DNA from: Promethearchaeia archaeon
GTDB lineage: Archaea; Asgardarchaeota; Lokiarchaeia; Sigyniarchaeales; SOKP01
NCBI GenBank assembly: GCA_029856045.1
Contig: JAHQWG010000028.1
Coordinates: 25,972 to 49,971, forward strand
DNA length: 24,000 nucleotides
Reading direction: 5' to 3'
Shown: piece by piece, positions 1,140 through 15,940 of the stretch
Position numbering within the stretch: the stretch's first letter is position 1
How the letters are laid out: every line of letters begins with the position of its first letter
Notes under the pieces: generated by a model
Seen by the model: the letters and a program-made list of their open reading frames with translations, nothing else
Databases searched by the model: none
Told to the model about the DNA's origin: nothing
Made by a program: the position numbers and the translations under genes

Positions 1140-2252
1140 ATGATATTTAAATTAAGACGACCTGACGCCGATATAGCTTGGAAAAATCCAGAAATATTTA
1201 AGAGATTCTCAAGATATCATGGAATTATTGATAATACGCAAACTGCAAGATATATTATAGCAAAAACTGTAGAATGTGATTTTAATTCAGATGATTCAAT
1301 AGAAAATCTCGAAAAACTATTAAAACAAAAATCTAAAGAATTTAAAAAAATTTTAAATGAAGATATTAATTCACAAAGGAATCGCAAAATTCAGGAGAAA
1401 TCTTACATACACTTATCTGAAACGATTGCTTATAAATATCTTGAAGATTGTAAATTTTGTGAGAGAAGATGCGGTGTTAATAGAATTCAAGGCGAAAAAG
1501 GATTTTGTCAGCTAGATAAGGATATATTTGTTTCTTCTGCTTTTTTACATTGGGGAGAAGAATCGGTATTAGTGCCGAGTGGAACTATTTTTTTTACTGG
1601 ATGCAATTTTGGATGCGTCTTTTGCCAGAATTATGATATATCTAACGCTTGGAAAGGTCGAAGAAAAATTGAAGATATCGCCCAAAAAGTTGATGGGAAA
1701 AGTTTAGCTGCAATTGCACAAAAATTGGTAGAAAATGGTGGAATTAATGTGAATTGGGTTGGAAGTGATCCTATCCCGTGCCTACATCTCATTCTTGAAT
1801 CACTGCTATATCAGAATATAAACATAACGCAATTATGGAATTCTAATTTTTATTTAACGGAAGAATCTTTGGATTTAATCATAGATTTTATGGATTTTTG
1901 GCTACCTGATTTAAAATATGGAAATAATAAATGTGCAGAAAAATATTCTGGGATAAAGAACTATTGGGAGGTTTTAACAAGGAATCTCAAAAAAATTCAC
2001 GAAGATGGCAGTGGAGAGATTATAATTCGCCATTTGGTTATGCCTAACCATGTTGAATGTTGTTCCAAACCAATTTTAGATTTTATTGCTAAAGAAGTTC
2101 CAAAATCAGTCGTGAATATCATGGGGCAGTTTAGACCAGAATATAAATCTAATCAATATCCCGAAATCAATCGAAGACCAACTTCAAGTGAAATACAACA
2201 AGTTAAAAAATATGCAGATAAGTTAGATATTCTTTATGAACCAGTATCCTAA
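1140..2252 (+). CDS. Radical SAM protein, PflX / pyruvate formate-lyase-activase-like family
   Basis: Canonical CX3CX2C cluster 'TGCNFGCVFCQN'. An upstream Cys-rich 'CKFCERRCGVNRIQGEKGFCQ' is typical of PflX-like (COG1313) proteins. 370-aa ORF with no competing frame. Confidence 0.75.
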   Translation: MIFKLRRPDADIAWKNPEIFKRFSRYHGIIDNTQTARYIIAKTVECDFNSDDSIENLEKLLKQKSKEFKKILNEDINSQRNRKIQEKSYIHLSETIAYKYLEDCKFCERRCGVNRIQGEKGFCQLDKDIFVSSAFLHWGEESVLVPSGTIFFTGCNFGCVFCQNYDISNAWKGRRKIEDIAQKVDGKSLAAIAQKLVENGGINVNWVGSDPIPCLHLILESLLYQNINITQLWNSNFYLTEESLDLIIDFMDFWLPDLKYGNNKCAEKYSGIKNYWEVLTRNLKKIHEDGSGEIIIRHLVMPNHVECCSKPILDFIAKEVPKSVVNIMGQFRPEYKSNQYPEINRRPTSSEIQQVKKYADKLDILYEPVS

Positions 2253-2443
2253 ATTTTAGTTGAAGAGAATTCAAAAAATTTTAATAATATTTATCAAATG
2301 TGTTTAATCTATTATCTCTTTCGGGATAAATATAACTTAAACCCAAAATTTAAAAAATAATGGAAAATTTTTCTTAGTAACACGTATTTATTTCTTAAAA
2401 CATAGAAAATATTTAAGACATATGTTAATTTGGAGAGATTCCT

Positions 2444-3580
2444 ATGAGCTTTGAATTGAAAGATATTAAAGGGTTAGGTATAAAAAGTGTCGAAAAACTG
2501 AAAGCAGGTGGTATTGAATCTGTTGAAAAATTGGCTCAATTAAGCGTTGAAGAGTTATCTAAAGTCGAAGGAATTGGAAAGAGTAGTGCAAAAAAATATA
2601 TTGAAGGTGCAAAAATTTTATTAAACTCCAGCAAAGAAAAATCTATAAGTGAAACTGAAGAAAAGAATAAAATAGATGAAGAACAAGAATTAATTGCTGA
2701 GAAAGAGAAGGATGCTCAAGAAGAACTAAAAAAATTGGAAAAAAAAAGAGAAAAGCTGAAAGAACAATCTGTTAAAAAAGGTGATTTTGTTCTTGTAAAA
2801 ATGACCGGTCGTACAGATAAGGGACATATATTTCAAGTTAGTAGCCCTGAAGATGCAAAAAAAGCAGGAATTTATGATGAAAAGAAAGATAAACAAGGAT
2901 TTTATACACCAGAATTTGTAATAGTTGGAAAACCTGGATTTGTAATTGATGGTATAAATGAAACTTTAGAAACTATGAAGTTTTTTGAAAAAAGGTCCAT
3001 TAGAATACCTCCAACTAAAGCATTTGGAAAGCGAGAATCTCAAAAAATTGATCGTATGGCAATTCAAAGATTTAAAAAATTAAATGAAGGAAAACCTCCA
3101 GAGCTTGGACAAACGTTTGTGAATAAAAAAGGACAAAGAGGTACTGTCACACGTATTGTTCAAGGACGTGTAATTATTGACTACAACCACCCTCTTGCAG
3201 GTCAGACTCTTGAATATAATTTAGAAGTCATTGATAAAATAGAAGAATTTGATAAAAAATTAGCACGTTTTATTGAATTAAGAATGCCGGGAGCAAAAGC
3301 TGATCAATTCAAAATAAAATTTGAGCCTAAGAAAAAGTCAATTGAAATTGAAATACCTCAAATGCATCAGTTTAGTCAAGGTCTTTTAATGTTTAAATTT
3401 GGATTGTCAATGGATCTACAAAATAACTTAGATGGAATGATTGATATTGTTAAATTTATAGAGGTTTTTGAAAAGCCAAAAATTCCAGAAACCCCTACAC
3501 CTGAGCCAGAACATGATCATAACCATGAACACAACCATGATGACAATAAAAGTGAAGAATCAAATAAAGAAAAGAAATAG
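2444..3580 (+). CDS. FKBP-type peptidyl-prolyl cis-trans isomerase (SlyD-like) with N-terminal helix-hairpin-helix domain and His-rich tail
   Basis: N-terminal HhH repeats 'GLGIKSVEKLKAGGIESVEKL...VEGIGKSSAKKYIEGA', followed by a K/E-rich linker. FKBP core 'GDFVLVKMTGRT..GHIF' and 'IDYNHPLAGQTLEYNLEVIDK'. C-terminal 'EPEHDHNHEHNHDD' resembles the SlyD metal-binding tail. GGAGAG lies before the ATG. Confidence 0.8.
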   Translation: MSFELKDIKGLGIKSVEKLKAGGIESVEKLAQLSVEELSKVEGIGKSSAKKYIEGAKILLNSSKEKSISETEEKNKIDEEQELIAEKEKDAQEELKKLEKKREKLKEQSVKKGDFVLVKMTGRTDKGHIFQVSSPEDAKKAGIYDEKKDKQGFYTPEFVIVGKPGFVIDGINETLETMKFFEKRSIRIPPTKAFGKRESQKIDRMAIQRFKKLNEGKPPELGQTFVNKKGQRGTVTRIVQGRVIIDYNHPLAGQTLEYNLEVIDKIEEFDKKLARFIELRMPGAKADQFKIKFEPKKKSIEIEIPQMHQFSQGLLMFKFGLSMDLQNNLDGMIDIVKFIEVFEKPKIPETPTPEPEHDHNHEHNHDDNKSEESNKEKK

Positions 3581-3676
3581 ATTTATTTGGTCATTTAAAC
3601 AATTATTAATAACCTAATTTGTTTTATAAACTCAAAAGATTATATTTATTTTAGAATTATTTTAAGGATATCAGTA

Positions 3677-4528
3677 ATGGGCAAAAGAATAACCTCTTTT
3701 TACTCGAAACATAAAGGAGTTTCAGATACTGCAAAAAAAATCAATCGGATTTGGGAAAAACATATACGAAAGGCATCAAAAGAGATAAGGAGATTATATA
3801 AATCAGCACCGATCAAAGAGGAACGCCAAGAAATTATCGAGGATGTTCACAAGAAGGGTTATAAGGTATTTGATCTTCATATCCATACATATATTAGCGA
3901 TGGTAATGAGAGTCCGCAATCAGTCGTAGATTATGCAATAGATATCGGACTTGATGGAATAGCAATAACAGATCATAATGCAATAAGAGGTGGAAAATTA
4001 GCTCAGCAATACGTAAAAGAGAAAGAGTATAATTTTATGGTGTTTCCTGCAGAAGAGATATCTTCGCGCGAAGGGCACATTGTTGCATATTGGGAGGAAT
4101 TTCCTGAAAAAAAGATTAAAGCGGGTCTTTCTGCTGTCGAAACTTGTAAAAAGATTCATGATATGGGCGGAATAGCAGTAGCTGCTCATCCCTTTGGACC
4201 CCATGGTGTTTCAGACCCGGAATTATTAACCACTCTTTTTGATGCATTGGAGATAAATTCTCGTTCTACAGCAGGTTCAGATTCTTTAGCAAAAGACTTT
4301 GCAGAGGCACAAAAAATTGCCTACACAGGTGGAAGTGATGCACATTTAATTCAATCAATTGGTTGTGGATGCACAATTACTAAAGAACCAGTGATTAAAA
4401 CTTCAGATTTATATGAGTTAATTGTGAAGAATAAAACAGATGTTTTAGTTACACCAATGTGGGTGGAAATAATTACATATCTTGAAGAATTGGCAGAAGA
4501 TTATGAAGAAGGATTAATTCAAGATTAA
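3677..4528 (+). CDS. PHP-domain metal-dependent phosphoesterase
   Basis: PHP signature 'DLHIHTYISDGNESPQSVVDYAIDIGLDGIAITDHNAI'. Later metal-ligand motifs 'VAAHPFG' and 'GGSDAH'. Confidence 0.8.
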   Translation: MGKRITSFYSKHKGVSDTAKKINRIWEKHIRKASKEIRRLYKSAPIKEERQEIIEDVHKKGYKVFDLHIHTYISDGNESPQSVVDYAIDIGLDGIAITDHNAIRGGKLAQQYVKEKEYNFMVFPAEEISSREGHIVAYWEEFPEKKIKAGLSAVETCKKIHDMGGIAVAAHPFGPHGVSDPELLTTLFDALEINSRSTAGSDSLAKDFAEAQKIAYTGGSDAHLIQSIGCGCTITKEPVIKTSDLYELIVKNKTDVLVTPMWVEIITYLEELAEDYEEGLIQD

Positions 4529-4670
4529 ATTTTTTATTCATTTTAAAAAAATCATTTTATCATTTATCTGGTAGAAATAAAATCGAATATTTAATAAATG
4601 TTAAATAACTGTTTCAATCTTTAAATAAATGATAAATTTAAATAAAGATTTTATCTTATAACTTCATAGA

Positions 4671-5558
4671 ATGCAACAAAAAAGGGTTATACTTAGCGCA
4701 GAGACATCTCATGAAGTTATTAAAATATTCATTGAGCATTTACAAAAACTTGATATTGACTTACAAATTTATAATCCGATTAGTAGCCCCCAAGATTTGG
4801 AAAATAATCAAATTTTCAATTATAAATGCGATTTATTACTAGTTAAAGTTCATAATGATACCTCGATTGACTTTTTACATTATGCAAAACTTCACAATAT
4901 TCCTACATTAAATAATATCGATGCAGTTCTTAATGTTAAAAATAAAGTTTCTTTAGATTATAGCTTGCGTGCTATTTTTAATAAATATAATTTTGAAAAC
5001 ATTCGTTTACCTAAGTCTTGGACATACTACTTTTATAAGATAAAACCCTTTAAAAAATGGATTCAGGAAAAACTTCCTATTGTCATAAAATCTCATTATC
5101 AGCACGAAAAAATGCTACGATTTAATTATTTAATTAGAGATATTAGCGAGATCAAAATGCTTGTTCGAAAGCATATGCTATTTCTTAATTATGATGTCTA
5201 TATACAAGAATTTATAGACTCTGATGGAATTGATAATAAAATTTACGTAATTGGAGATAAAGTATTTGGAATAAAAAGACCGAGCCCAATTTTTATTTAT
5301 AAAAAATACTCAGCTCAATATATTGATACAAAAAAATTAGAACGAGAACAATATGATCCTCCACCAGAATTAATTGAATTAACTCAGATCTTAAGAAAAG
5401 AACTTAAAATGGATTTTTTTGGATTTGATTTACTAAAATCAAATCGAGATGGCAATTATTATATTGTTGATGTAAATGATTTTCCAGGTTATAGAGGTAT
5501 TAAAGGAGCCGGGAAAATAATGGCAGATTATGTAAAAAATTACTTGGAAATTGATTGA
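4671..5558 (+). CDS. ATP-grasp kinase, inositol-1,3,4-trisphosphate 5/6-kinase (ITPK1)-like
   Basis: 'YIQEFIDSDGIDNKIYVIGDKVFGIKRPS' and 'FFGFDLLKSNRDGNYYIVDVNDFPGYRGI' track the ITPK1 motifs 'VVQEFINH..YKVFVVG....QRPS' and 'LFGIDII.....AVIDINAFPGYEGV' (recalled from memory). Confidence 0.6.
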   Translation: MQQKRVILSAETSHEVIKIFIEHLQKLDIDLQIYNPISSPQDLENNQIFNYKCDLLLVKVHNDTSIDFLHYAKLHNIPTLNNIDAVLNVKNKVSLDYSLRAIFNKYNFENIRLPKSWTYYFYKIKPFKKWIQEKLPIVIKSHYQHEKMLRFNYLIRDISEIKMLVRKHMLFLNYDVYIQEFIDSDGIDNKIYVIGDKVFGIKRPSPIFIYKKYSAQYIDTKKLEREQYDPPPELIELTQILRKELKMDFFGFDLLKSNRDGNYYIVDVNDFPGYRGIKGAGKIMADYVKNYLEID

Positions 5559-5606
5559 ATTCTCTAAAGAAATAGAATATATTCAGCATTATACTTGTTT
5601 GGAAAA

Positions 5607-5918
5607 TTATTCTGACTTTTTCTTTAAGTCAATATATTCTCCATCCATAATGCGGGCTATATAGCGCCGCCCTTTGATAATCCACATAATTTTATGGCCT
5701 TCTCTTGCTTTTTGCCCCCATTGCGATTTCTTTCTGCGATTTTGTTCAATATATCGATAACCAAAAATATCCACATATTTTACGCCGCTACTTGAAAATT
5801 TCTTTATTGGATATTCAATATTTTCGATCTCAACACTCTTTTCTCCTTCAAATATTGCGTTAAATATTTTAAACCCATTTACTTCCAAATTTTTCATTAT
5901 ACCTAAACTCAACTTCAA
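5607..5918 (-). CDS. Hypothetical small basic protein
   Basis: 103-aa ORF, co-directional with and 61 nt downstream of the SBBP-repeat gene. I recognise no motif. The true start may be the internal Met of 'MKNLEVNG'. Confidence 0.35.
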   Translation of the reverse strand: MKLSLGIMKNLEVNGFKIFNAIFEGEKSVEIENIEYPIKKFSSSGVKYVDIFGYRYIEQNRRKKSQWGQKAREGHKIMWIIKGRRYIARIMDGEYIDLKKKSE

Positions 5919-5979
5919 GTAGATAATATTATTGGATCAAATTTATTTCATATCTTATTGATTTCAAGAATTGTTTTTT

Positions 5980-6287
5980 TCAAATTTTTCCTTTATCTTG
6001 TTTTTCCCAATCAGCATAAGTATCTAATAATGTATCTATTACGCTATCGATATCACTAGTAGCAGAAAATATGAATTTATTTCCTTCCATTTTTCCATCT
6101 AACGAGCTGCTTCCAACTAAATCATAAACAAACAATCTTAATTTTTCAATATCTTTATTCATCTGTTTAGAAAGATATTTCAAATCTATTTCTCCATTTG
6201 TTTTTGCCATTCCTCTTAGAATGTTTTTTAAATCTACCTTTCCCTCTGTTTCTCTAATTGAAGTATAATACTTCTCATCTTTAACTC
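5980..6287. repeat. Copy A of a ~310-nt dispersed direct repeat (3' coding end of the SBBP gene)
   Basis: Aligns by eye, base for base, with 7802-8110 with scattered substitutions and a 1-codon indel. Both copies start at the stop codon ('tcaaatttttcctttatcttgtttttcccaatcagcata'). Confidence 0.85.
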
Positions 6288-7656
6288 TTTTCTTCTTAGA
6301 AACCTTCACTACTACATAACCAATCCCAATAACTATACCAAAGATTACCATAACTGTTATGATAAATATGAGTTCTGAAGGAATTCCATCCGAATCAATT
6401 TCACCCCCACCGTCATCCGTACCAATACTAAATTTCAAAAGAAATAAATAACTCCATTCATCATCCTGATCCTGTGTTGTTCCTACGACATAAATGTTAT
6501 CAGAAGAATCAATTGCTACTCCATATCCAGTATCTTTATCACTTTCACCCCATGTTTTATACCACTCTTGATCTCCTGAACTATTATATTTAATTAAAAC
6601 CATGTTATTACCTGGACCAACACCGAAACTACATGATAATCCCACGACATAAACATTGTCAAGAGAATCAACTTTTACTCCATATCCTTCATCGTAATGA
6701 ATTCCGCCCCATGTCTTATTCCATTCATGATTACCTGCATTGTTATATTTTACAAGCAAGATATAATAATCGCCCGTACCAGGAACTCCAGTTGATTCTA
6801 CGACATAAATATTATCAGAAGAATCAACTGCTACTCCGTATCCATATTCATCATTACTTCCGCCCCATGTTTTATTCCACTCTTGTACTCCTAAACTGTT
6901 ATATTTCACAAAAACTACATCACGCTGTTCCTCACCTGTACTCTGGGTATATCCAACAATATAAATGTTATCAGAAGAGTCAATCGCTATTCCCTCCCCT
7001 ATATAAGTATTTACTCCACCACACGTTCTATTCCACTCTTGTATTCCTAAACTATTGTATTTTACAAGAACTATATCAAAACCTCCCACACTGAAACTAC
7101 TTGTAATTCCCACGATATAAATATTATCGGAAGAGTCAACTGCTATTCCGCCACCATACTCATATCCACTTCCACCCCACGTTCTATTCCATTCTTGTAT
7201 TCCTAAACTATTGTATTTTACAAGAACTATATCATAACCTCCCACACCGAAACTACTTGTTCTTCCTACGATATAAATATTATCAGAAGAATCAATTACC
7301 AATTCACATCCCGAATCGTGTTGATTTCCGCCCCATGTACTATTCCACTCTTGTGTTCCTGAACTGTTATATTTCGCAAGAACCATATCCCAATCTCCCA
7401 GCGTCTCGGTTCTTCCAACAACGTAAATATTATCAAAAGAATCAATTGCTACTCCATATCCATAGTCATCGTTACCTCCGTTCCAGGTTTCTTCCCATTC
7501 TAAAACCATTGAATTACTTATAGATGGAATAATTAATGTAGTTATATTACTTGTTTGTAAATAAAAACCAAAATATAAGCTTGGAAATATAATAAAAATC
7601 AAAAATAATGAAAGAGATATGCTCATTATTAAATTCGTAATTTTCTTCTTTAGCAA
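5980..7656 (-). CDS. Surface-exposed SBBP-type beta-propeller repeat protein with C-terminal TM helix and cytosolic winged-helix-like tail
   Basis: N-terminal signal/anchor 'MLKKKITNLIMSISLSLFLIFIIF'. Seven ~52-aa repeats 'EWN.TWGG....G.G.A.DSSDNIYVVG.T......D..LVKYNS.G.Q'. TM helix 'LIFIITVMVIFGIVIGIGYVVV' is followed by 'KVSKKKRVK' (positive-inside). A ~100-aa tail is shared with the neighbouring gene. Confidence 0.75.
   Translation of the reverse strand: MLKKKITNLIMSISLSLFLIFIIFPSLYFGFYLQTSNITTLIIPSISNSMVLEWEETWNGGNDDYGYGVAIDSFDNIYVVGRTETLGDWDMVLAKYNSSGTQEWNSTWGGNQHDSGCELVIDSSDNIYIVGRTSSFGVGGYDIVLVKYNSLGIQEWNRTWGGSGYEYGGGIAVDSSDNIYIVGITSSFSVGGFDIVLVKYNSLGIQEWNRTCGGVNTYIGEGIAIDSSDNIYIVGYTQSTGEEQRDVVFVKYNSLGVQEWNKTWGGSNDEYGYGVAVDSSDNIYVVESTGVPGTGDYYILLVKYNNAGNHEWNKTWGGIHYDEGYGVKVDSLDNVYVVGLSCSFGVGPGNNMVLIKYNSSGDQEWYKTWGESDKDTGYGVAIDSSDNIYVVGTTQDQDDEWSYLFLLKFSIGTDDGGGEIDSDGIPSELIFIITVMVIFGIVIGIGYVVVKVSKKKRVKDEKYYTSIRETEGKVDLKNILRGMAKTNGEIDLKYLSKQMNKDIEKLRLFVYDLVGSSSLDGKMEGNKFIFSATSDIDSVIDTLLDTYADWEKQDKGKI
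6426..7509. repeat. Seven tandem ~156-nt coding repeats (SBBP beta-propeller blades)
   Basis: The period is 52 codons. Adjacent units at ~7024-7105 and ~7180-7261 are nearly identical at DNA level ('acgttctattcca.tcttgtattcctaaactattgtattttacaagaactatatca.aacctcccaca'). Confidence 0.85.
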
Positions 7657-7801
7657 ATCTCTACCCTTTTACTAACTAATTTAAATATATAAAATATAAT
7701 TTTTAATGTATTTAAGTTTATTACCATCAAATCTACATCTTTACATTTAAGTATAAAAAAAATTATATACATGCAAATAATTGAAAGGAAAATCAATCTA
7801 T

Positions 7802-8110
7802 TCAAATTTTTCCTTTATCTTGTTTTTCCCAATCAGCATAACTGTCTAATAGAGTATCTATTGCGTTTTCGATATCAATAGAATCGGATAATATGAATTT
7901 ATTTCCCTCCATTTTTCCATCTAATGAACTACTTCCAACCAAATCATAAACAAACAACCGTAATTTTTCAATATCTTTATTCATTTGTTTAGAAAGATAT
8001 TTCAAATCGATTTCTCCAGTTGTTTTTACCATTCCTCTTAAGATGTTTTTTAAATCGACCTTTCCCTCAGTGTCTCTAATTGAGGTATAATATTCCTCCT
8101 TTCTAACTCG
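7802..8110. repeat. Copy B of the ~310-nt dispersed direct repeat (3' coding end of the two-TM gene)
   Basis: See copy A. The encoded tails are identical at roughly nine in ten residues by eye. Confidence 0.85.
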
Positions 8111-8335
8111 TACATTTTTTTGGAGCTTACGTTCAATCAGTTCAAATGGTATCATAATTATCAGCAAAAGGATTATATAAGCTATTATGTATGTATACAT
8201 TTGCTGGATAATACTCAAAATTATACAAATAATAAATGTTACACAAATAATTCCCCCTATAGACTCATAAATAACTCTTACAGCTTTCTCCTTTGGGGTA
8301 TAATCCCTAAATTTTACTTTGAAGTCTTTAGACAT
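7802..8335 (-). CDS. Small two-TM membrane protein with cytosolic PCI/DDRGK-type winged-helix-like domain
   Basis: Two hydrophobic helices, 'IGGIICVTFIICIILSIIQQ' and 'YIIAYIILLLIIMIPFELI'. The rest is 'EEYYTSIRDTEGKVDLKNILRGM...GEIDLKYLSKQMNKDIEKLRLFVYDLVGSSSLDGKMEGNKFIL...ADWEKQDKGKI', near-identical to the tail of the 5980-7656 protein. Confidence 0.7.
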   Translation of the reverse strand: MSKDFKVKFRDYTPKEKAVRVIYESIGGIICVTFIICIILSIIQQMYTYIIAYIILLLIIMIPFELIERKLQKNVRVRKEEYYTSIRDTEGKVDLKNILRGMVKTTGEIDLKYLSKQMNKDIEKLRLFVYDLVGSSSLDGKMEGNKFILSDSIDIENAIDTLLDSYADWEKQDKGKI

Positions 8336-8723
8336 GATTTTACCATAGAATTTAATTTATTAAATCTATTAATAATTAATAATGATTTCTCTGTTTTACT
8401 ATATATATTTTGATAGTGTCATGCAAAAATTTTTTTAAGTTCCAATGAGCGAAGATAAGTTAGGAACATTCACATTTAATTGAATATATAATCTCCTTGT
8501 CCTTTTTTCATAAATGTAAAAATAATTTAAATCATAAAAACTCTTAAATTTATCAAATTTAAGATAACTTTTACATTACTAAATAATATTTAATTTTATG
8601 ATTATTATTACTCAATGAGATCATATATTTAAAGAAAAAAGGTGCATGTATTTATTAGATTTGTTTTATTAAATTTATATTGAATTTAATGTAATTTTCA
8701 AAAACATTTACAAACGAGTTCCA

Positions 8724-9311
8724 ATGAGTGAAAATTTAAAATGTAATGTATGTGGTGGAGAAATTTCTGAAGATGATCTTGCATTATTAAAAATTCAGAA
8801 AAAAATTGAATGTAGATATTGTAAAAATCTGATAGTTTTAGATGAAAAGACCGCTAAGATTAAAGAAGATTTATGTTGTGTAATATGTGGGGGTGCTTTA
8901 GCGGTTGAAGATCTATCGGAAAAGGCTCTAGCCTGTAAGTATTGTCAAAATGATTTAGAAGAAATATCTTATAGCGAAGCTAATTATCCAGAAATTTTTA
9001 ACAGATTAAAAGCCATACCCGAAGAAAAAATTATTGAGATTTATAAGACTTTAATGAGAGAGGAGAATTTTGAACAGTTAAATAAAGATGACCAAATTAA
9101 ATTAAAAAAATTTGGTGAATCTTTTATACCAAAAATGAAAGAAATTTATAAAGCGAATAAATGGGATATGGCTACAAAAGCTATTGGATGGTTAGGTCAT
9201 AGTTTGGGAACCTTATTAGGATTAACAATACTAGGTGGTACAATTGGAGGAGCAGTGGGAGTATTGTTATCAGTATTAGGAGTTGCATTCGTTAGAGGCA
9301 AGGCAAAATAA
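8724..9311 (+). CDS. Tail-anchored double zinc-ribbon protein
   Basis: Two CxxC...CxxC ribbons: 'CNVCGGEI..(19)..CRYCKNLI' and 'CVICGGAL..(15)..CKYCQNDL'. A helical middle is followed by a Gly-rich hydrophobic C-terminus 'LGTLLGLTILGGTIGGAVGVLLSVLGVAFV'. First gene of the + strand array. Confidence 0.65.
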   Translation: MSENLKCNVCGGEISEDDLALLKIQKKIECRYCKNLIVLDEKTAKIKEDLCCVICGGALAVEDLSEKALACKYCQNDLEEISYSEANYPEIFNRLKAIPEEKIIEIYKTLMREENFEQLNKDDQIKLKKFGESFIPKMKEIYKANKWDMATKAIGWLGHSLGTLLGLTILGGTIGGAVGVLLSVLGVAFVRGKAK

Positions 9312-9350
9312 ATTGAATAATTTGAAAATTTAAGAATTAGATTTAAAATT

Positions 9351-10448
9351 ATGTTAGAATTTAGATTAGTTCCACAATTTCGCAATAATTGTGTGATTCA
9401 GGGTAAAAAAGAGTTAGTTAGCAGTTTTAAAGAAGGAGATACAGTATTTTTATTATCAAAAATTCCAACAAAAACATTTTCTATCTTAACAAAAGTTGAA
9501 GGGATTATAGATTCTGATGAGAATCTTATCTACATCGATCAAAGGATACTTGGTAAATTAGCAGAAAATGATATGGTGACGATTTTAAAACATAATCCAG
9601 CCGAAGCATTAACAATATATTTAGCAATATCGGAATCTTTTTCCAGAGTTTTCAGCGGTGATTGGACATCTTTTGCCAAAAAACCATTAGAAAATAAAGT
9701 TTTTGATTTTGGACAAGAAGTATCATTTATAATTCCCTGGGAAGATGAACATGGAAACCAACTTCCTCCAATTGCTATTTCAGGATTTGTATATTCAACT
9801 GTTCCTACACCACCTATAAAAGTTGGATTACAAACGAAAATATATTTGAAAAAATTTCCTGAACTACAGCTACAAAAAATAAAACAAACTGGTTTTGAAA
9901 AACAAGAAGCACGTGTAAATATATTGGATAATGAAATCCAACAAAACATTTTGCACCTTATGCAAACGATTAAACAAAATAATTATCCAACTAAGGCAAA
10001 TAAATATAAATTTAAAAATGTTAATGCAAAACAATTATTTGCCTCTATAAACGAGGTTTTTAAAGGATTTCGAGTTGTTGAAGGGCCAACTGAAAAGACA
10101 TTTGATAGTGAAAATCAATCATTTTTAGGTTCCATTGTTTATCTTGCTGAAGAAACTACAGATTCTCTGGCAGTTATTGATCTTCAGGTATTAGCAAAAA
10201 ATCAAAATGGAGAAGTAATACTAATGGTCACTGCTAAAGATAATGATGTTGTTTATAATCTGTTAAATAAATATGATTTATTAATTCGCAAAATTAAAAT
10301 TGGGTTAGAAGAAAAAGCAGAGCTAAAGGTTGAGATTTGTCCTAGCTGTGGGGCAGATTTACCTCTTGATGATGTGGACTCAGATGGATCTATTGAATGT
10401 TTATATTGCCACAGAACCTCAATTATTCCAAAATCATATAGATACTAG
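9351..10448 (+). CDS. Cdc48-N/VAT-N/Ufd1-like N-domain protein with C-terminal zinc ribbon
   Basis: 'LIYIDQRILGKLAENDMVTILKHNPAEALTIYLA' followed by 'KPLENKVFDFGQEVSFII....ISGFVYSTVPTPPIKVGLQTKIYLK' fits the double-psi barrel + beta-clam pattern of Cdc48_N/Cdc48_2 (by eye). The C-terminal 'CPSCGADL..(14)..CLYCHRTSII' is the same ribbon type as in the upstream gene. Confidence 0.5.
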   Translation: MLEFRLVPQFRNNCVIQGKKELVSSFKEGDTVFLLSKIPTKTFSILTKVEGIIDSDENLIYIDQRILGKLAENDMVTILKHNPAEALTIYLAISESFSRVFSGDWTSFAKKPLENKVFDFGQEVSFIIPWEDEHGNQLPPIAISGFVYSTVPTPPIKVGLQTKIYLKKFPELQLQKIKQTGFEKQEARVNILDNEIQQNILHLMQTIKQNNYPTKANKYKFKNVNAKQLFASINEVFKGFRVVEGPTEKTFDSENQSFLGSIVYLAEETTDSLAVIDLQVLAKNQNGEVILMVTAKDNDVVYNLLNKYDLLIRKIKIGLEEKAELKVEICPSCGADLPLDDVDSDGSIECLYCHRTSIIPKSYRY

Positions 10449-10468
10449 ATTTTATTCTTATTAAAATT

Positions 10469-10473
10469 GAGGA
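10469..10473 (+). promoter_or_regulatory. Shine-Dalgarno-like motif (GAGGA) for the E1 gene
   Basis: GAGGA lies 6 nt upstream of the ATG at 10480, in a 31-nt intergenic gap. Confidence 0.4.
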
Positions 10474-10479
10474 TATTGA

Positions 10480-11259
10480 ATGGATTCCGATAGATATACA
10501 CGTTTAAAAGCAATAAAAGAATTTGGTTATGATATAAATTGGGATGATCTTAAAAAATACCATGTTGGCATAGTTGGAGTTGGTGGGTTAGGTGCAGTTT
10601 CAGCCGAAATGGCTACAAGGTGTGGAATTGGCAAGATTTCATTGTTTGATTTTGATATTGTAGAAGAAGTTAATCTCAATAGATTATTTTTTAAACCTCA
10701 ACATGTGGGTTTATTAAAAGTTGAAGCGGCAAAAAAGATTCTGAAAGAAATAAATCCTGATGTGGAGTTTTTTACTTATCCTAAAGACATTATGGATATG
10801 GATTTTGAACCCATATTTGATAAAAAGATTCAAGAAATAGATATTATTCTTAATGGAGTTGATAATCTAGCTGCTCGTGAGTATTTGAATATAAAATGCA
10901 TTAGATTCAAAATACCTTATATAAATGCTGGTGCATCTAGAAGTGGTCTATCAGGTTATGTCCATCCAATAATCCCTTATAAAACAGCTTGTTCTGCATG
11001 CATAAAGCGGATTAATATTGAAAAATCTAATGACCGTGGAGAGCCATGCACCGCATCTCTGCCATCAACTATGGCGATATTAGCTAGTATTCAAATTCAA
11101 GAACTGCTGAAGTATTTATTGAAATTTGGGACGATGATCGATTATGTCATGTACAATATGCTTTCTGGAGAATTTTCATATTATAAGACAATCAGAGATA
11201 ATAAGTGTTCAATTTGTGGAGACTTTAATGTTCTAAAGGAAAATGAAAAACATTTATAG
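10480..11259 (+). CDS. UBA5-like E1 (UFM1-activating-enzyme-like adenylation domain, ThiF/MoeB superfamily)
   Basis: 'VGIVGVGGLGAVSAEMATRCGIGKISLFDFDIVEEVNLNRLFFKPQHVGLLKVEAAKKILKEINPDV' tracks human UBA5 '[67 protein letters not shown]' closely. 'RGEPCTASLPSTMAILASIQIQELLKYLLKFG' tracks '[32 protein letters not shown]', which holds the catalytic Cys (here codon 11047-11049). Zn pairs are 'CSAC' and 'CSIC'. Human sequence recalled from memory. Confidence 0.85.
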   Translation: MDSDRYTRLKAIKEFGYDINWDDLKKYHVGIVGVGGLGAVSAEMATRCGIGKISLFDFDIVEEVNLNRLFFKPQHVGLLKVEAAKKILKEINPDVEFFTYPKDIMDMDFEPIFDKKIQEIDIILNGVDNLAAREYLNIKCIRFKIPYINAGASRSGLSGYVHPIIPYKTACSACIKRINIEKSNDRGEPCTASLPSTMAILASIQIQELLKYLLKFGTMIDYVMYNMLSGEFSYYKTIRDNKCSICGDFNVLKENEKHL

Positions 11260-11298
11260 TATTATGAAAAAAATCTCTGATAATTTAATTAAAAAACT

Positions 11299-11303
11299 GG
11301 AGG
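11299..11303 (+). promoter_or_regulatory. Shine-Dalgarno-like motif (GGAGG) for the JAMM gene
   Basis: GGAGG lies 7 nt upstream of the ATG at 11311. Confidence 0.45.
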
Positions 11304-11310
11304 AATAAAA

Positions 11311-12537
11311 ATGGATTTTGTAAAAATTACAGAGGATATTTTAAATTTTATTAAAAAGCAGGCCATATTAAGCACTGATGAGATATATGGATGGTTAATT
11401 GGATATCAAATGAATAATATTCCATACATAATTACCGCTCTCGATTGTCAAAATTATCTACAGCAGTCATACATCAACGCCATCCCTGATCCCCTAGAGA
11501 TTCAAAAAATTGGTGGCTTAATGCCTCACGGGATTGGCATTATTGGTATATATCATTCTCATCCCTTTAAAAGTGAAGTTTTTCATTCTCATACAGACGA
11601 TGAAACTCTAATAAGCTTAAGTAAACAACTTCCAAATTGTGTGTCAATTGTAACAAATGGAAAAGATATTAATTATTATCAAATGGATAAGTCATTTAAA
11701 TTAGTGGATATTGATCCAAAAATCTGGAAACCTGAAATACCAGAATTCTTACCCATTTTTTTTAATAATTCATTTATTATTAATTTAGAGAAAAATCTAC
11801 TCAATAATGAGAGCCTACATGTAAAAATATTTAATAAATTTAAAGATTATTTAGAAGAGAATTGGGATGATTTTAAATTATTCAAAAATAATATAGAAAT
11901 TTCTTATAATGAAAAAATAAATCAATATTTTAAATCTTCTCTGGATGGAAATTATCTGGAATTGAAGTTTAAAAATAAAAAGAATATTAATGAATTAATT
12001 AAAATTAATGTATTCAATGAAGAAATAGGCGTTAAAGTTGCAGACCAAGCTGATATGGTTTCTTTGCAATTAAATCTTAAATCCTTAGATCTTTTTTATA
12101 TTACCGATAAAAATAGTATTAATGAACTCAGAAATTCAATTAAAATTGAAATAATAAATAATAGTATAATGCCAAAAATCTTTCGATGCTTAATTGATAT
12201 TGATAATTCTGAATTACGAATACCAAATGAGCTTTTTCTTAATTTATATGGATTTTTCATAAAAGTTAATTATTATAATCAAGAGATTATTCAAAAATTA
12301 AATGATACTTATCCAATCAACAATAATTATGAAAATCTTTCGATAAAAAATTGGGAATTTTTAGGTAGGATGTTAAAAATAGTGGATTTATATTTATCTT
12401 TAAAAATTGATAAATCTTCAAAAAGGCTTCTCATCGAATTAGTTGAAAATTTAATTAAATTATCCAAAAATCACAAATGGTATGATAAGATAAAAAAAGT
12501 TTTAGATAAACAAAAAGAATCTTTATTACGATCATAA
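11311..12537 (+). CDS. JAB1/MPN+/JAMM metalloprotease with ~270-aa N/K/I-rich C-terminal extension
   Basis: Catalytic Glu context 'DEIYGWLIGY'. JAMM motif 'GIYHSHPFKSEVFHSHTDDE' (HxH...SxxD, nt 11554-11598). The core covers roughly the first 135 residues and the rest has no motif I recognise. Confidence 0.8.
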   Translation: MDFVKITEDILNFIKKQAILSTDEIYGWLIGYQMNNIPYIITALDCQNYLQQSYINAIPDPLEIQKIGGLMPHGIGIIGIYHSHPFKSEVFHSHTDDETLISLSKQLPNCVSIVTNGKDINYYQMDKSFKLVDIDPKIWKPEIPEFLPIFFNNSFIINLEKNLLNNESLHVKIFNKFKDYLEENWDDFKLFKNNIEISYNEKINQYFKSSLDGNYLELKFKNKKNINELIKINVFNEEIGVKVADQADMVSLQLNLKSLDLFYITDKNSINELRNSIKIEIINNSIMPKIFRCLIDIDNSELRIPNELFLNLYGFFIKVNYYNQEIIQKLNDTYPINNNYENLSIKNWEFLGRMLKIVDLYLSLKIDKSSKRLLIELVENLIKLSKNHKWYDKIKKVLDKQKESLLRS

Positions 12538-12611
12538 TGAATAATTAAATAGATTAAAAAAATTGATTATTATATAATATAAAAATTTAAAAAAATTGAG
12601 GGTAGTAGTTA

Positions 12612-12878
12612 ATGGCAAATATTGGCATCACTACAGTTTATTTTGTTAATAAGTTTGCTCCAGAAAAAAAACATATTCCATTTCCAGTTTCTCCTTCAAT
12701 GACAATGGCAGATCTTTTACCAGAGTTATCTAAAAAGTTTAATATACATTTACAAAATATTTCAATTGCGGTGCAGGATTCACAAGTTTTAACGATAGAA
12801 GAATATTCTTTATCACTAAAGAATTTAATTGATAAATTTGGTAAAACATTTGATATTATTGATAGAAATATAGTAGGC
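12612..12878 (+). other. UFM1-like beta-grasp domain ending at Gly89 (candidate processing site after 12878)
   Basis: Domain-level call within the fusion ORF. The 'DRNIVG' Gly codon ggc lies at 12876-12878 and is followed by the ~10-aa linker 'TEKSDAQYSES'. Confidence 0.6.
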
Positions 12879-13430
12879 ACTGAGAAATCTGATGCACAAT
12901 ATTCAGAAAGTCTGGTGGATGAATTAATTCCTGAGTTTGGAGCCGAATGGGCTAAGATAGGTCCCAAACATCCACGTTGGCAAGAAAGAATAAAAAAAGA
13001 AATAGAAAATATCTTAAGATACGTACATTATCTAAAAAAACTTTCAAATGAGCCATGGTTTAGATTGGTTCCTTCGAAAAATCCTAGACATAATTACCTC
13101 ATTTGGAATGGACATATCCTTGTTCCAAAACGACCAGAAATAAAATTTGATATCGCAATATTATTAACTTCAGAGTATCCTAAAAATTGCCCACGTTGTT
13201 TTGCAGATGACAAAATAATGGATTATTGTGGAAAACTATATTTTGGTAATGTATGGGAGCAAGAAGGGCATAAATACGTGATGATATGCCATGACCATAT
13301 GAGTGAAACCACCGCCTGGAAAGAATCACTGGGGATTGTTCATTTCTTCATAAGAGAGATTTGGATTTGGTGGATGGCTCAACAAAATTTCATCATTCAA
13401 AATTGGGATGAAAAGCATGGTAAAAAGTAA
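12612..13430 (+). CDS. Fusion protein: UFM1-like ubiquitin-fold domain + UFC1-like E2
   Basis: Residues 1-89 end 'FDIIDRNIVG' (human UFM1 mature C-terminus is 'RIIPRDRVG'), and 'IPFPVSPSMTMADLLPELSKKFNI' tracks '[24 protein letters not shown]'. Residues ~100-272: 'LVDELIPEFGAEWAKIGPKHPRWQERIKKEIENILRYVHYLKKLSNEPWFRLVPSKN' tracks UFC1 '[53 protein letters not shown]'. 'KFDIAILLTSEYP' tracks 'EFDIEFDIPITYP', and 'VMICHDHM' tracks 'GKICLTDHF' (catalytic Cys, codon 13287-13289). No HPN motif, as in UFC1. GAGG lies upstream of the ATG. Confidence 0.75.
   Translation: MANIGITTVYFVNKFAPEKKHIPFPVSPSMTMADLLPELSKKFNIHLQNISIAVQDSQVLTIEEYSLSLKNLIDKFGKTFDIIDRNIVGTEKSDAQYSESLVDELIPEFGAEWAKIGPKHPRWQERIKKEIENILRYVHYLKKLSNEPWFRLVPSKNPRHNYLIWNGHILVPKRPEIKFDIAILLTSEYPKNCPRCFADDKIMDYCGKLYFGNVWEQEGHKYVMICHDHMSETTAWKESLGIVHFFIREIWIWWMAQQNFIIQNWDEKHGKK
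12909..13427 (+). other. UFC1-like E2 core domain
   Basis: Domain-level call within the fusion ORF. See the motif comparison under the CDS entry. Confidence 0.65.
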
Positions 13431-13601
13431 TTACATATAAAATTTTTTAATTTTTTCAATTTATAAAGTTATTTTTTAAATAACAAATGAAGGCGAAATA
13501 TTATTAAAAGTAAGGTAAAAAAACCTGAAGAATTAAAAGCATTTACTTACGGAATAAAAAATAGAATATTATCAAATATTAAAAGCATTGAAGCAAAATT
13601 A

Positions 13602-14654
13602 ATGAAAATTATTCAATATTATATAAAATTGGATAATATGGAGATTAATAATGAATTAGAAAAACTTAGAAGGAATCTATTGAAGTTAAAAGATACTTTA
13701 AACGCATATAGAATCCCTCCATCATTAACAAAGATTGATAAAATAAAGAAGAACGTTATTAATAAAATAAAAATGGTAATTTTCTATTTAGAATTGATAC
13801 TGATTGAAACGGAAAAAACTATTTATGATTTTGAAGAAAGTACCCTTGATTTCAAGGATAATGATAATATTGAAGAGGTTCTCAATATTTTCTCAGAATG
13901 TGATAAAAAGATAAATAATTTATTATTACAATTGGATAATTTTGGAGATCTAACTCAATTTAAAAATATTTTCGATTTGATTGAACCTGAAATTGAAAAA
14001 CTATATCCTAAATCTAAAGATATCGAGAAAATTTTGAAGCTAAGTAAAAAAGCCAATTTATTAAAAATCGAGAGAGAGAAATTACCAACAATTCTGAAAA
14101 TTGAAAGGGAAGAAAAGAAAGAAGTAAAAGAAAAAAAAATTATTCAACCTTTAGAAACTGCAGAAGAAAATAATGAAGTTCTACGTAATATTTTCGAAAG
14201 ATTCTCCTTAAAGGTTCCAAATAAGAGTCAATTAATTGATAGTATCGTATCGATTGGGGATTCTAAAATAACAAACGAATTAGGGGGAGTCGTAAAAATA
14301 ACAGCATTATATAACTTTATAAAAGATGAGAATAAGGATTTAGATTTTACATTAGACGATTTAAACAAAGTTTTAAAATATATGAGAAAGAAAGGATATA
14401 TTTCAGATATTGAAGAGATTGAAAATCTAAAGTTAGTAAAATTTATTCCACTTGAACTATCATCAGATCCAAAATTATTATTAGAATCCGTAGGATTCGA
14501 AGGCGTGGAGACTAAAGAAAATTTAATGAAAAAACTTAATTGGCCAGAATCAAGAGTGGATGAGGTTTTAAGGTTTTTAATTGACAAGGGAATATGCAAA
14601 TCAGAAAATAATTCTTTAATAAGTGAAAGATTTTACTTTCCAGGATTAGTATAG
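13602..14654 (+). CDS. EAP30-domain protein (ESCRT-II Vps22/Vps36-like) with N-terminal coiled-coil region
   Basis: The C-terminal ~150 aa 'LGGVVKITALYNFIK...FTLDDLNKVLKYMRKKGY...LVKFIPLELSSDPKLLLESVG...ENLMKKLNWPESRVDEVLRFLIDKGICK....ERFYFPGLV' aligns by eye with human SNF8/EAP30 'NGGLITLEELHQQVL...VSQDDLIRAIKKLKALG...LIQSVPAELNMDHTVVLQLAE...EIKASLKWETERARQVLEHLLKEGLAW...HYWLPALF' (tandem winged helices). The N-terminal ~200 aa is K/E/I-rich and helical. Confidence 0.7.
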   Translation: MKIIQYYIKLDNMEINNELEKLRRNLLKLKDTLNAYRIPPSLTKIDKIKKNVINKIKMVIFYLELILIETEKTIYDFEESTLDFKDNDNIEEVLNIFSECDKKINNLLLQLDNFGDLTQFKNIFDLIEPEIEKLYPKSKDIEKILKLSKKANLLKIEREKLPTILKIEREEKKEVKEKKIIQPLETAEENNEVLRNIFERFSLKVPNKSQLIDSIVSIGDSKITNELGGVVKITALYNFIKDENKDLDFTLDDLNKVLKYMRKKGYISDIEEIENLKLVKFIPLELSSDPKLLLESVGFEGVETKENLMKKLNWPESRVDEVLRFLIDKGICKSENNSLISERFYFPGLV

Positions 14655-14734
14655 AAATTATTTAAAAACATTAATATAGAATAAAGTTTAACAAATAAAT
14701 TAAAAATAAAATATTTAATAAACGGGTGTAAAGA

Positions 14735-15940
14735 ATGGTAGGAGAGATTCCTAGAGGAATTAGTCGAAGTTTAAAAGATAAAGTCTTAGGTAAGAAGTTA
14801 AAAATTGTAGAGATGATGCATGAGACTTCAGCAGATCTAAGTGAAAAAAGAGTGGTTTATCGTTTAGCTCTAACTGGAAAAAAAGAGGCAGGAAAAAGGG
14901 AAGAAAAGGTTTCTGCTTTTATAGTTAAAGCATATGAAAGTGCGATTTTGCTTCAATTAGGAAAGTTTATTGGAATTATTCCAGAAGGCGTTTGGGAAAT
15001 TGAAAAAGAATTTCAATACACAGGGACTGAAATTATCTGGGTTGATAAAACAGAGTTTAAAACTAGATGGGGTTTAGCAGATATTTACTTAAATGATAAT
15101 ATTAAAGTAGGGGCTCATGGTTCACTTGTAGTAAAAATTTCAGAACCGAAAAATTTTGTGTTAAATGTTGTCTCAAATAAGCAGATTGTTGACAGAGGAC
15201 AAGTCGATAAATTCATTTTTGAGCACGTAGGTCAAAGTTATAAAGATATACTTGGTGGTTTTTCGATCAATGATGTTATTAGAAGTCGAGATATGATTAA
15301 ACAAAAAGTAAATGCAAAATTATATGATCTTCTAACTCATTGGGGTATTGAATTAATAAATATGGAAATAGAAGGCTTCAAGCTTCCTGAAGAATTTGAG
15401 GAAATTGGTCAAGTATCCATGGAAACCTCACTTGAAAAACAGAAAGCAATCTCAGATAGGGAACGCATAAAAGAGGAAATTGAAACTGTAAAGATACAAT
15501 CAGAATTAGAAGCCCAAAAAAGAGAAATAGAGGCAAATAGAAAAGGTTTTGAACGTGAACAAGCCGTTATAGACTCTCAAATTGGTTATGAAAAAGCTAA
15601 ATATGATGCTAAAGCAAAAGAAATTGAAGGAACTGTGAGTGTTGAATTACTGGAAAAACAGCAAAAAGCTAAAGCAGCAGGAGATGTAGCAAAAATTGAA
15701 GTTACTGGTGATAAAATGGCCAAAATTGTTGAAGCTCAAGCCGGAGTAGATAAGAGTCAAGAGGACTTAAAACGAGAACGACAACAAAAGATTAAGCAAG
15801 AAATTTCCGAATTAAAAGAGAAATTAAATAAATTTGATGATTTATTGGCTGAAGGAAAACTTTCTGAAGATATATATAAAGTGCGAGTTTCTCGAATTGA
15901 GAAAGAGTTGAAAGATCTTGAAACAAAACTTCTAGATTAA
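14735..15940 (+). CDS. SPFH/band-7 (Band_7_1, B. subtilis YdjI-like) protein with long C-terminal coiled coil
   Basis: 'IIWVDKTEFKTRWGLADIYLND.NIKVGAHGSLVVKISEPKNFVLNVVS' tracks YdjI 'VLFVNTKEFTVRWGTKQAINI...IRANGTFTFKVQDYVSLIDKIAG' (from memory). 'GIELINMEIEGFKLPEE' tracks 'GLTVTGFQIMSFNYPQE'. The last ~170 aa is E/K/Q-rich coiled coil. GGGTG lies 6 nt before the ATG. Confidence 0.7.
   Translation: MVGEIPRGISRSLKDKVLGKKLKIVEMMHETSADLSEKRVVYRLALTGKKEAGKREEKVSAFIVKAYESAILLQLGKFIGIIPEGVWEIEKEFQYTGTEIIWVDKTEFKTRWGLADIYLNDNIKVGAHGSLVVKISEPKNFVLNVVSNKQIVDRGQVDKFIFEHVGQSYKDILGGFSINDVIRSRDMIKQKVNAKLYDLLTHWGIELINMEIEGFKLPEEFEEIGQVSMETSLEKQKAISDRERIKEEIETVKIQSELEAQKREIEANRKGFEREQAVIDSQIGYEKAKYDAKAKEIEGTVSVELLEKQQKAKAAGDVAKIEVTGDKMAKIVEAQAGVDKSQEDLKRERQQKIKQEISELKEKLNKFDDLLAEGKLSEDIYKVRVSRIEKELKDLETKLLD

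Follow-up and report, generated by a model that had tools for sequence, protein, structure and literature searches.

The stretch analysed here (hereafter the window) comprises 24,000 nucleotides of a Promethearchaeia archaeon genome, namely positions 25,972 to 49,971 of the forward strand of contig JAHQWG010000028.1 (assembly GCA_029856045.1). [quoted passage not shown] Three things are observed at the locus: a WH tandem whose fold and homology can be assigned, UBA5- and UFC1-type enzymes encoded upstream, and a gene order that is conserved at related loci. The genes of the module and the parts of the Vps22-like gene are as follows, with transmembrane abbreviated as TM.

8724 to 9311, forward strand: 195-residue protein; two zinc ribbons, their CxxC pairs readable in the sequence, and a glycine-rich TM anchor at the C-terminus
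9351 to 10448, forward strand: conserved 365-residue protein, in synteny at all family loci; zinc ribbon at the C-terminus
10480 to 11259, forward strand: UBA5-type E1 of the ThiF fold (Pfam ThiF, E 5.5e-50)
11311 to 12537, forward strand: JAB/JAMM metalloprotease with a C-terminal extension of ~280 residues (Pfam Prok-JAB, 27.5 bits against a cut-off of 25)
12612 to 13430, forward strand: Ubl-E2 fusion of 272 residues (Ubl, residues 1–89; UFC1-like E2, residues ~113–272, with Cys226)
13503 to 14654, forward strand: EAP30/Vps22-like gene (annotated ATG at 13602, 350 residues; probable start ATT at 13503, 383 residues)
13602 to 14051, forward strand: N-terminal helical domain (residues 1–150 of the ATG form, to which the upstream extension is added)
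14052 to 14219, forward strand: K/E-rich, low-confidence linker with both LKIERE copies (residues 151–206)
14220 to 14651, forward strand: Vps22-like tandem WH (EAP30) module, supported by Pfam EAP30, PDB profiles, a predicted structure and Foldseek
14735 to 15940, forward strand: SPFH protein with Band_7 and Band_7_1 domains (Pfam E 4.7e-16 and 3.4e-9)

Sequence comparisons place the WH tandem, residues ~207–350 of the ATG form, in the EAP30 family, as a preliminary description of this DNA had proposed from an alignment of the C-terminal region with human SNF8/EAP30. The Pfam EAP30/Vps36 model (PF04157) matches residues 218–332 over model positions 99–215 of 219 with an E-value of 8.3e-6; the score of 26.1 bits is 0.7 bit under the gathering cut-off of 26.8, and the same model is matched by all eight aligned members of the family, the best at E 6.3e-9. 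When the single protein is compared with the PDB by phmmer, human SNF8 is the top match (3cuq_A, E 3.8e-4) and yeast Vps22 is also found, while a profile of the family matches SNF8 at 1.2e-6 and yeast Vps22 at 2.6e-5. The profile alignment extends through the terminal motif, in which 'kyyFPGL' stands opposite 'hYWLPAL' of SNF8.

The family itself is rare, with ~9 clusters known. A word-indexed search of 5.8 billion protein sequences, which did not reach distant EAP30 proteins, returned eight homologue clusters (42–72% identity, 347–382 residues), and a ninth was added by profile search. Searching 1.84 billion representative proteins with the profile gave 189 matches at E <= 1e-3; among the matches listed, those beyond the family's own full-length members and fragments cover only the last ~160 profile positions, and ~30 representative clusters are relatives of 330–460 residues. 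Ten of these matches were sampled, nine of them from outside the family, and all ten match Pfam EAP30, seven above the gathering cut-off; among them are a Vps22-like protein of 241 residues and a GLUE-containing Vps36. When WH tandems are placed in a rough neighbour-joining (NJ) tree, the narrow family groups by itself, outside the clade that contains human SNF8 and outside a clade of 240-residue Asgard proteins, one member of which is named 'Promethearchaeota archaeon' (Promethearchaeota is NCBI's present name for the Asgard phylum).

Structure prediction leads to the same assignment. A full-length AlphaFold model built from eight sequences is poor (predicted local distance difference test, pLDDT, 58), and its top PDB matches are still SNF8 and Vps22. 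The sole usable model is that of the C-terminal region, residues 200–350 (151 residues), for which 43 domain sequences from the representative search were added to make a 44-sequence alignment; its mean pLDDT is 84. Foldseek comparisons of this model with known structures, scored by TM-score (TMq), are listed below.

Human SNF8 (2zme_A): TMq 0.83, root-mean-square deviation 2.1 Å over 145 columns, E 2.4e-9
Yeast Vps22 (1u5t_A): TMq 0.78
Vps36: TMq 0.45
Vps25: TMq 0.35
UFL1 (8ohd_A): TMq 0.40, E 0.02 (range for UFL1, TMq 0.31–0.40)
Transcription-factor WH proteins: TMq <= 0.41

With 0.83 for SNF8 and no more than 0.45 for any fold other than Vps22, this predicted model is specifically Vps22-like, both in its two winged helices and in how they are oriented to each other. 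A pair of WH domains of the transcription-factor type, which had been named as the finding that would overturn the EAP30 assignment, thus fits the model far less well. Taken together, sequence profile and fold establish that the C-terminal module is homologous to EAP30/Vps22.

The N-terminal part of the protein is a different matter. It had been described as a coiled-coil-like, K/E/I-rich region of ~200 residues with a repeated LKIERE and with neither a GLUE nor an NZF domain. The repeat, the K/E-rich composition of the linker and the lack of both domains hold; the region as a whole is not a generic coiled coil and contains a conserved helical domain. Helices are predicted, in a low-confidence model, at residues 12–35, 44–80, 87–112 and 124–150. 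The linker that follows (pLDDT 26–37) has 9 K and 12 E among its 56 residues, and the family alignment shows little conservation along it. LKIERE occurs at residues 154 and 165, the second copy is missing in orthologues, and the duplication corresponds to no significant tandem repeat in the DNA. A profile of the N-terminal domain, run against a set of 158 sequences, matches colinearly and end to end the N-termini of seven distant EAP30 proteins of 330–460 residues (P0017, P0021, P0022, P0026, P0032, P0023 and P0020; E 1e-8 to 9e-5), and gives no match to the 240-residue Vps22-like proteins. Thus, judged by these profiles, an architecture of a helical N-domain of ~190 residues, a linker and a Vps22-like WH tandem defines a wider Asgard EAP30 subfamily.

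The extent of the N-domain depends on where the gene begins. The open reading frame (ORF) list contains a 350-residue frame at exactly 13602 to 14654 (forward strand), in a window with a G+C content of 25–34%, that is, AT-rich. Family alignments, however, show orthologue N-termini that are ~30 residues longer than this ATG form. The frame is open upstream of ATG 13602 as far as a TGA at 13488, and the in-frame extension of 33 codons, IKSKVKKPEELKAFTYGIKNRILSNIKSIEAKL, is homologous to the orthologue N-termini; its translation, which ends in IIKSKVKKPEELKAFTYGIKNRILSNIKSIEAKL-M, has clear homology to 'VIKNKLKKPEELKSFIYGIKLR' at the N-terminus encoded by locus L003 (loci related to the window are given L numbers, and EAP30 proteins P numbers). 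A relative that is 72% identical, at locus L013, has a matching extension with a TAA directly before its ATT codon, and the twelve codon differences between the two extensions comprise seven synonymous and five conservative changes. The other two frames of the region are packed with stops. The ATT at 13503 is kept in the window, L013 and L018, and a Shine-Dalgarno-like AGGCG lies 5–8 nt upstream of it. Because this in-frame extension is conserved, the gene most likely starts at ATT 13503, 99 nt upstream of the annotated ATG, and would code for a protein of 383 residues; the apparent 172-nt intergenic gap before the gene is then reduced to ~70 nt. Gene callers shorten the EAP30-like protein in the window, L013 and L014.

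Comparison of the related loci identifies the downstream SPFH gene as the most conserved partner of the Vps22-like gene. An SPFH gene directly follows the EAP30 gene on the same strand in the window (L001), L013, L003, L015, L006, L005, L008, L009 and L011; counted as independent loci with downstream DNA, eight of nine have this arrangement, with gaps of 10–80 nt. The full order of 365-residue protein, E1, JAB, Ubl-E2, EAP30 and SPFH recurs in L013/L014, L015, L006/L007 and L018, and L003/L004 has the same order with the E1-JAB pair inverted; in all, the full order is kept in five diverged family loci whose EAP30 proteins share 42–72% identity. L005 and L008 keep the EAP30-SPFH pair. The pairing extends to distant relatives in L009 and L011 that are only ~30% identical to the window protein in the WH tandem, and the SPFH protein of the window is orthologous to the copies at these two loci (1.6e-45 and 2e-38, respectively). 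In L009 (P0020), the pair is followed by a gene for a TM-PCI-zinc-ribbon protein; in L011/L012 (P0018), genes for an Arf-like GTPase and Roadblock proteins are nearby. Such Arf and Roadblock neighbours, together with the low G+C content, would suit Lokiarchaeia-like genomes. A scan of metagenomes found one near-identical locus, and a scan of genome contigs with the family alignment found nothing.

Locus L018 suggests that the pair may move as a unit. When its positions 1523–8700 are compared with 8724–15940 of the window, EAP30 is 96% and SPFH 92% identical, while the upstream genes (195-residue protein, 365-residue protein, E1, JAB and Ubl-E2) are only 72–84% identical. This mosaic pattern suggests that the EAP30-SPFH pair has been exchanged together and that recombination had its breakpoint between the genes for Ubl-E2 and EAP30.

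The SPFH protein has a long C-terminal helical region, typical of SPFH proteins that form baskets, and no TM segment was found in it. A motif at its C-terminus looks SHOCT-like by eye; Pfam does not report it, and no such claim is made. The only TM segment of the module is that of the 195-residue protein (Kyte-Doolittle value 2.09 at residue 172), homologues of which are encoded at L003, L015 and L018, and in L005 after the SPFH gene. In the 365-residue protein, the zinc ribbon is the sole detectable domain; a resemblance to the Cdc48 N-domain was considered and dropped, as it has no Pfam or PDB support. A homologue of this protein (L019, positions 1–687; tblastn 2e-20) is encoded 10 nt upstream of a distant 454-residue EAP30 relative, P0022, and the link of the 365-residue protein with the EAP30 subfamily therefore does not depend on SPFH. 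A scan of the window for sigma-70 promoters and terminators gave counts equal to chance, from a model that is uninformative for an archaeon.

The upstream cassette had been described as being of UFM1 rather than ubiquitin type, and this holds for its enzymes. Human UBA5 is the top PDB match of the E1 over its whole length (residues 1–257, 2.1e-54, 188 bits), compared with 91 bits for MoeB and no more than 67 bits for the E1s of ubiquitin, SUMO and NEDD8. The E2 half of the fusion scores 27.2 bits against Pfam UFC1 (cut-off 25) and 13.7 bits against UQ_con, and its profile matches only UFC1 chains in the PDB (1e-5). Alignment with human UFC1 by hhalign pairs residues 113–271 with 17–163 (probability 95%, E 3.6e-8) and places the invariant Cys226 opposite the catalytic Cys116; agreement of the human query with the PDB alignments covers its N-terminal part. 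The two enzymes are thus, by sequence, of the kinds used in the UFM1 pathway. For the Ubl, the UFM1 label is weakly supported. The 89 residues, putatively beta-grasp-like, have no Pfam or PDB sequence match; a comparison by hhalign with human UFM1 is weak (E 0.016, probability 2.8%), colinear, and places a VG opposite V82-G83 of UFM1, and on this basis the modifier may be UFM1-like. In the window it ends in ...DRNIVG, and the glycine at the Ubl-E2 junction is invariant among homologues ('DRNIVG', 'IVGGGG', 'GEAG'). Because Ubl and E2 are fused, the JAB protease would have to process the precursor before the Ubl could be activated. No UFSP cysteine protease and no UFL1/DDRGK1 E3 is detected in the window, and the JAB metalloprotease, syntenic in all family loci and matching the PADLOC JAB model at 6e-5, presumably fills the protease role by cutting the precursor after Gly89.

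A scan of genome contigs with the Ubl-E2 alignment found only two loci, both from Promethearchaeota metagenome-assembled genomes (MAGs), in which the same Ubl domain is fused to a membrane protein (L016, 99–1544; L017, 8001–8246). The Ubl is 49% identical, ends in ...FAGGG, and runs on into an extended disordered linker that leads to a membrane domain at the C-terminus, in place of an E2. These fusions indicate that the modifier-like domain occurs in more than one architecture.

The association of EAP30 with Ubl conjugation is broader than the UFM1 type. Within 6 kb of the EAP30-SPFH pair in L011 are genes for a 413-residue E1, a ubiquitin/Rad60-type Ubl of 109 residues with GG at its end, an E2 of the UQ_con family and a JAB protein. 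A 585-residue protein encoded next to the pair, within the same 6 kb (11908–13665, reverse strand), has a PCI WH domain (E 1.7e-5), matches the UFL1 family weakly (E 0.022) and carries several clusters of cysteines of RING-like or zinc-ribbon type; it is a candidate E3 of this ubiquitin-type cassette. Because a relative sits beside a ubiquitin-type cassette, the linkage of EAP30 is to Ubl cassettes in general and not to UFM1 specifically.

Fold and gene order together lead us to propose, tentatively and at slightly less than an even chance, that the Vps22-like protein is a non-canonical ESCRT-II-like adaptor of the Vps22 type, from an Asgard-specific EAP30 subfamily, and couples Ubl conjugation, or targets that carry a Ubl, to a membrane assembly of SPFH. 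The SPFH protein encoded immediately downstream is probably the partner that it contacts directly. In such a scheme, the JAB protease would cut the Ubl-UFC1 precursor after the invariant glycine, and the UBA5-like E1 would activate the freed UFM1-like Ubl and hand it on to the UFC1-like E2. Probably as a dimer held by its helical N-domain, the Vps22-like protein would then connect the conjugation machinery or its tagged targets with the SPFH assembly at the membrane, and the zinc-ribbon/TM protein (8724–9311) may supply membrane anchoring. We infer every physical interaction, the conjugation target and any hand-over to ESCRT-III, as all that goes beyond fold, homology and gene order is inference, drawn here for a rare family. 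Homodimers are known for a Heimdall Vps22, and Asgard Vps22 works with ubiquitin systems (PMC9192718); SPFH proteins are contextually linked to ESCRT in other archaea, and YdjI of Bacillus recruits PspA (PMC10936438). In an Asgard archaeon, SPFH-like baskets have been described on the plasma membrane, at its inner face (bioRxiv 10.1101/2025.11.06.686947).

Several observations weigh against this adaptor model. The N-terminal helical region of Vps22, which forms the Vps22-Vps36 stalk (Pfam model positions 1–98), is undetected, the Pfam match beginning at position 99; the model of the N-domain is of low confidence (pLDDT 40–70), and given that, the domain could conceivably hold a structural analogue of the stalk. 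Pfam scans of the protein and of other family members find no GLUE, NZF, PH or UEV domain. P0022 in L019 has no SPFH gene downstream and is the exception among the nine loci, and gene order on MAG contigs is linkage, not mechanism. The preliminary description was right that the window has no Vps25, ESCRT-III or Vps4 gene, as a search of all its other ORFs finds none of these domains; the same is true beyond it, where none of Vps25, Vps28, Vps23, ESCRT-III and Vps4 is encoded in the ~10 loci examined, with flanks of up to ±10 kb. An ESCRT-like output is therefore unsupported by the window and its related loci.

The missing ESCRT genes bear equally on a more conventional explanation, that the protein is a bona fide ESCRT-II subunit working with Vps25, ESCRT-III and Vps4 encoded elsewhere, and that the operon reflects regulation shared with the Ubl system. 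In its favour, the WH tandem is Vps22-like (TM-score 0.83 to SNF8), several patchily distributed ESCRT-II paralogues exist in Asgard genomes, especially those of Lokiarchaeia (PMC10936438), and ubiquitin and ESCRT genes are often linked there (PMC9192718). However, the family branches apart from the SNF8 and 240-residue Asgard Vps22-like clades in the rough NJ tree, an unrelated helical domain of ~190 residues replaces the Vps22 N-terminal region, and no partner gene lies within the flanks covered; we regard this explanation as unlikely. The UFM1-type enzymes raise a further one. The eukaryotic UFM1 E3, UFL1-DDRGK1, is a membrane-tethered scaffold of WH repeats with a long charged helix, and the Vps22-like protein might likewise be a scaffold-type E3 or substrate adaptor, binding the E2 of UFC1 type and placing this enzyme on a target that could be the SPFH protein. 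Genes for an E1, E2, Ubl and protease are present in the operon, and no RING, HECT or UFL1 homologue is found there; UFL1 and DDRGK1 are thought to be Asgard-derived (PMC10183829), and structures of both appear among the fold matches (8ohd_A, E 0.02; 8b9x_B, E 0.04). Yet the superposition on UFL1 is poor beside that on Vps22, Pfam E3_UFM1_ligase and DDRGK give no match at E-values up to 1, and the conserved 365-residue zinc-ribbon protein is an equally good candidate for E3 or adaptor. The pair in L011 also stands beside another E3 candidate, the 585-residue PCI protein with RING-like fingers, which suggests that the EAP30 protein is not the ligase. A role as scaffold-type E3 or substrate adaptor thus seems to us rather unlikely.

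Two further explanations take the module out of the ESCRT and UFM1 contexts altogether. An E1, a JAB and a Ubl-E2 fusion recall bacterial Ubl-conjugation defence operons, and the module might serve antiviral defence or conflict in the manner of Bil/CBASS-Cap2/Cap3 systems (E1, E2, JAB and Ubl), in which case EAP30 and SPFH would act on membranes as effectors or sensors. The E1 matches the PADLOC E1-E2 model at 3.5e-18 and the JAB also has its PADLOC match; the rarity and patchiness of the family, with ~9 clusters among 5.8 billion proteins, and the exchange suggested by L018 would suit such a system. The PADLOC matches nevertheless reflect generic ThiF/JAB similarity (64 bits, where UBA5 gives 188 bits), the EAP30, SPFH, 365- and 195-residue proteins match no defence family, and the flanks are housekeeping or metabolic and partly syntenic (PHP, Ins134_P3_kin, radical SAM), which is not typical of a defence island; a defence function is accordingly improbable. 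Least probable, and by our estimate a long shot, is a WH transcription regulator of the operon. The second winged helix does match TrmB (E 1.8e-4) and other winged helix-turn-helix families weakly in Pfam, and a family member carries the label 'predicted transcriptional regulator' in one source. Set against this are the wide margin by which Vps22/SNF8 is the best fold, the isoelectric point of the WH tandem, which ranges from 5.1 to 9.4 among orthologues and so argues for no conserved basic surface, and the strict pairing with SPFH, which persists in differing operon contexts.

Asgard paralogues of EAP30 are already well known, and the Vps22-like protein is not a new kind of protein. It shares with Vps22/SNF8 and the ~240-residue Asgard orthologues a homologous C-terminal WH tandem with the terminal aromatic-x-F/L-P motif, and with Asgard ESCRT genes the tie to a Ubl-conjugation system. 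It differs from Vps22/SNF8 in its N-terminal helical domain and K/E-rich linker, its separate clade, and its constant neighbour, which is SPFH and not Vps25, Vps23, Vps28, ESCRT-III or Vps4. The closest published comparison is with the Asgard ESCRT-II paralogues of Makarova et al. 2024, such as Vps22# (asCOG cog.002769), in which the WH tandem is fused to a steadiness box. Those variants, too, are EAP30 proteins confined to Asgard archaea; they carry additional helical modules at the N-terminus and occur patchily, chiefly in Lokiarchaeia-like genomes. Unlike the family described here, which is not mapped to an asCOG, they lie inside ESCRT loci, co-directed with vps23 and vps28. Loci of B. subtilis YdjI-PspA and the archaeal 'Meth_adaptin' ESCRT loci also place an SPFH gene of the Band_7_1/YdjI type beside an ESCRT-superfamily component; in the window this component is ESCRT-II-like and not ESCRT-III/PspA, and the operon adds a complete E1-E2-Ubl-JAB set. 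UFL1-DDRGK1 resembles the Vps22-like protein in combining WH repeats with a long charged helical segment and works with UBA5 and UFC1 at a membrane, but it has no detectable sequence similarity to it. Searchable open-access texts contain no mention of an EAP30-SPFH pair in a UBA5/UFC1-type operon, nor were the N-domain subfamily, the constant SPFH partner or such an operon with a Ubl-E2 fusion found in that literature.

ESCRT-II and ubiquitin-like systems are central among the 'eukaryotic signature' machineries, and their roles in archaea are still unclear. At this locus, a Vps22-type module stands apart from the ESCRT cluster and is firmly tied to an SPFH scaffold and a Ubl cassette. The arrangement hints at a link between protein tagging and membrane organisation in archaea beyond the classical ESCRT gene cluster, suggests what Asgard SPFH baskets may have docked onto them, and, being compact, makes the partner and role of an archaeal ESCRT-II-like protein biochemically testable. 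It is also relevant to the origin of UFMylation. In 2023, UFC1 and UFM1 were reported to be exclusively eukaryotic, and UFL1 and DDRGK1 Asgard-derived (PMC10183829), the only searchable open-access text in which 'UFC1' and 'Asgard' occur together; Ufm1 homologues have since been described by structural modelling in nine Asgard clades, with UFC1 unmentioned (PMC12962969). The operon places a UBA5-like E1 beside a UFC1-like E2 fused to its Ubl. A bolder proposal, which we consider doubtful, is that the operon is a survivor of a primordial, complete Asgard UFM1-type pathway (UBA5-like E1, UFC1-like E2 fused to its own Ubl, and JAB processing), with a dedicated ESCRT-II-like WH reader or scaffold docked on an SPFH membrane basket. 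If this were true, UFC1 and UFM1 would predate eukaryotes, in contrast to the 2023 view, and the coupling of Ubl tagging with membrane microdomains by WH scaffolds would be older than the divergence in function between ESCRT-II and the UFL1/DDRGK1 ligase.

Other genes of the window lie outside the module. Upstream of it, positions 3677–5558 code for a PHP-domain protein and an Ins134_P3_kin ATP-grasp protein (inositol-1,3,4-trisphosphate 5/6-kinase-like, E 2.2e-16). The same Pfam families are found upstream in L003 (1–3697), and some flanking synteny may be retained between the two loci. Two adjacent genes on the reverse strand, for a 558-residue SBBP beta-propeller protein (5980–7656) and a 177-residue membrane protein (7802–8335), share a near-identical C-terminal domain of ~100 residues after TM segments (…YYTSIR[DE]TEGKVDLKNILRGM…DGKMEGNKFI…YADWEKQDKGKI). 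A DDRGK1/PCI-like WH identity for this domain was rejected, as it has no Pfam match and only a weak Pcc1-like match in the PDB (E 0.0065). Near the start of the window, a 273-residue protein (245–1066, forward strand) has matches to a ThuA/GATase1-like fold and to the IFT52 GIFT domain (E 5.9e-8, above cut-off) and ends in a long poly-acidic C-terminal tail (EEEDKEEEEDEDDEEEEEEDFEED).

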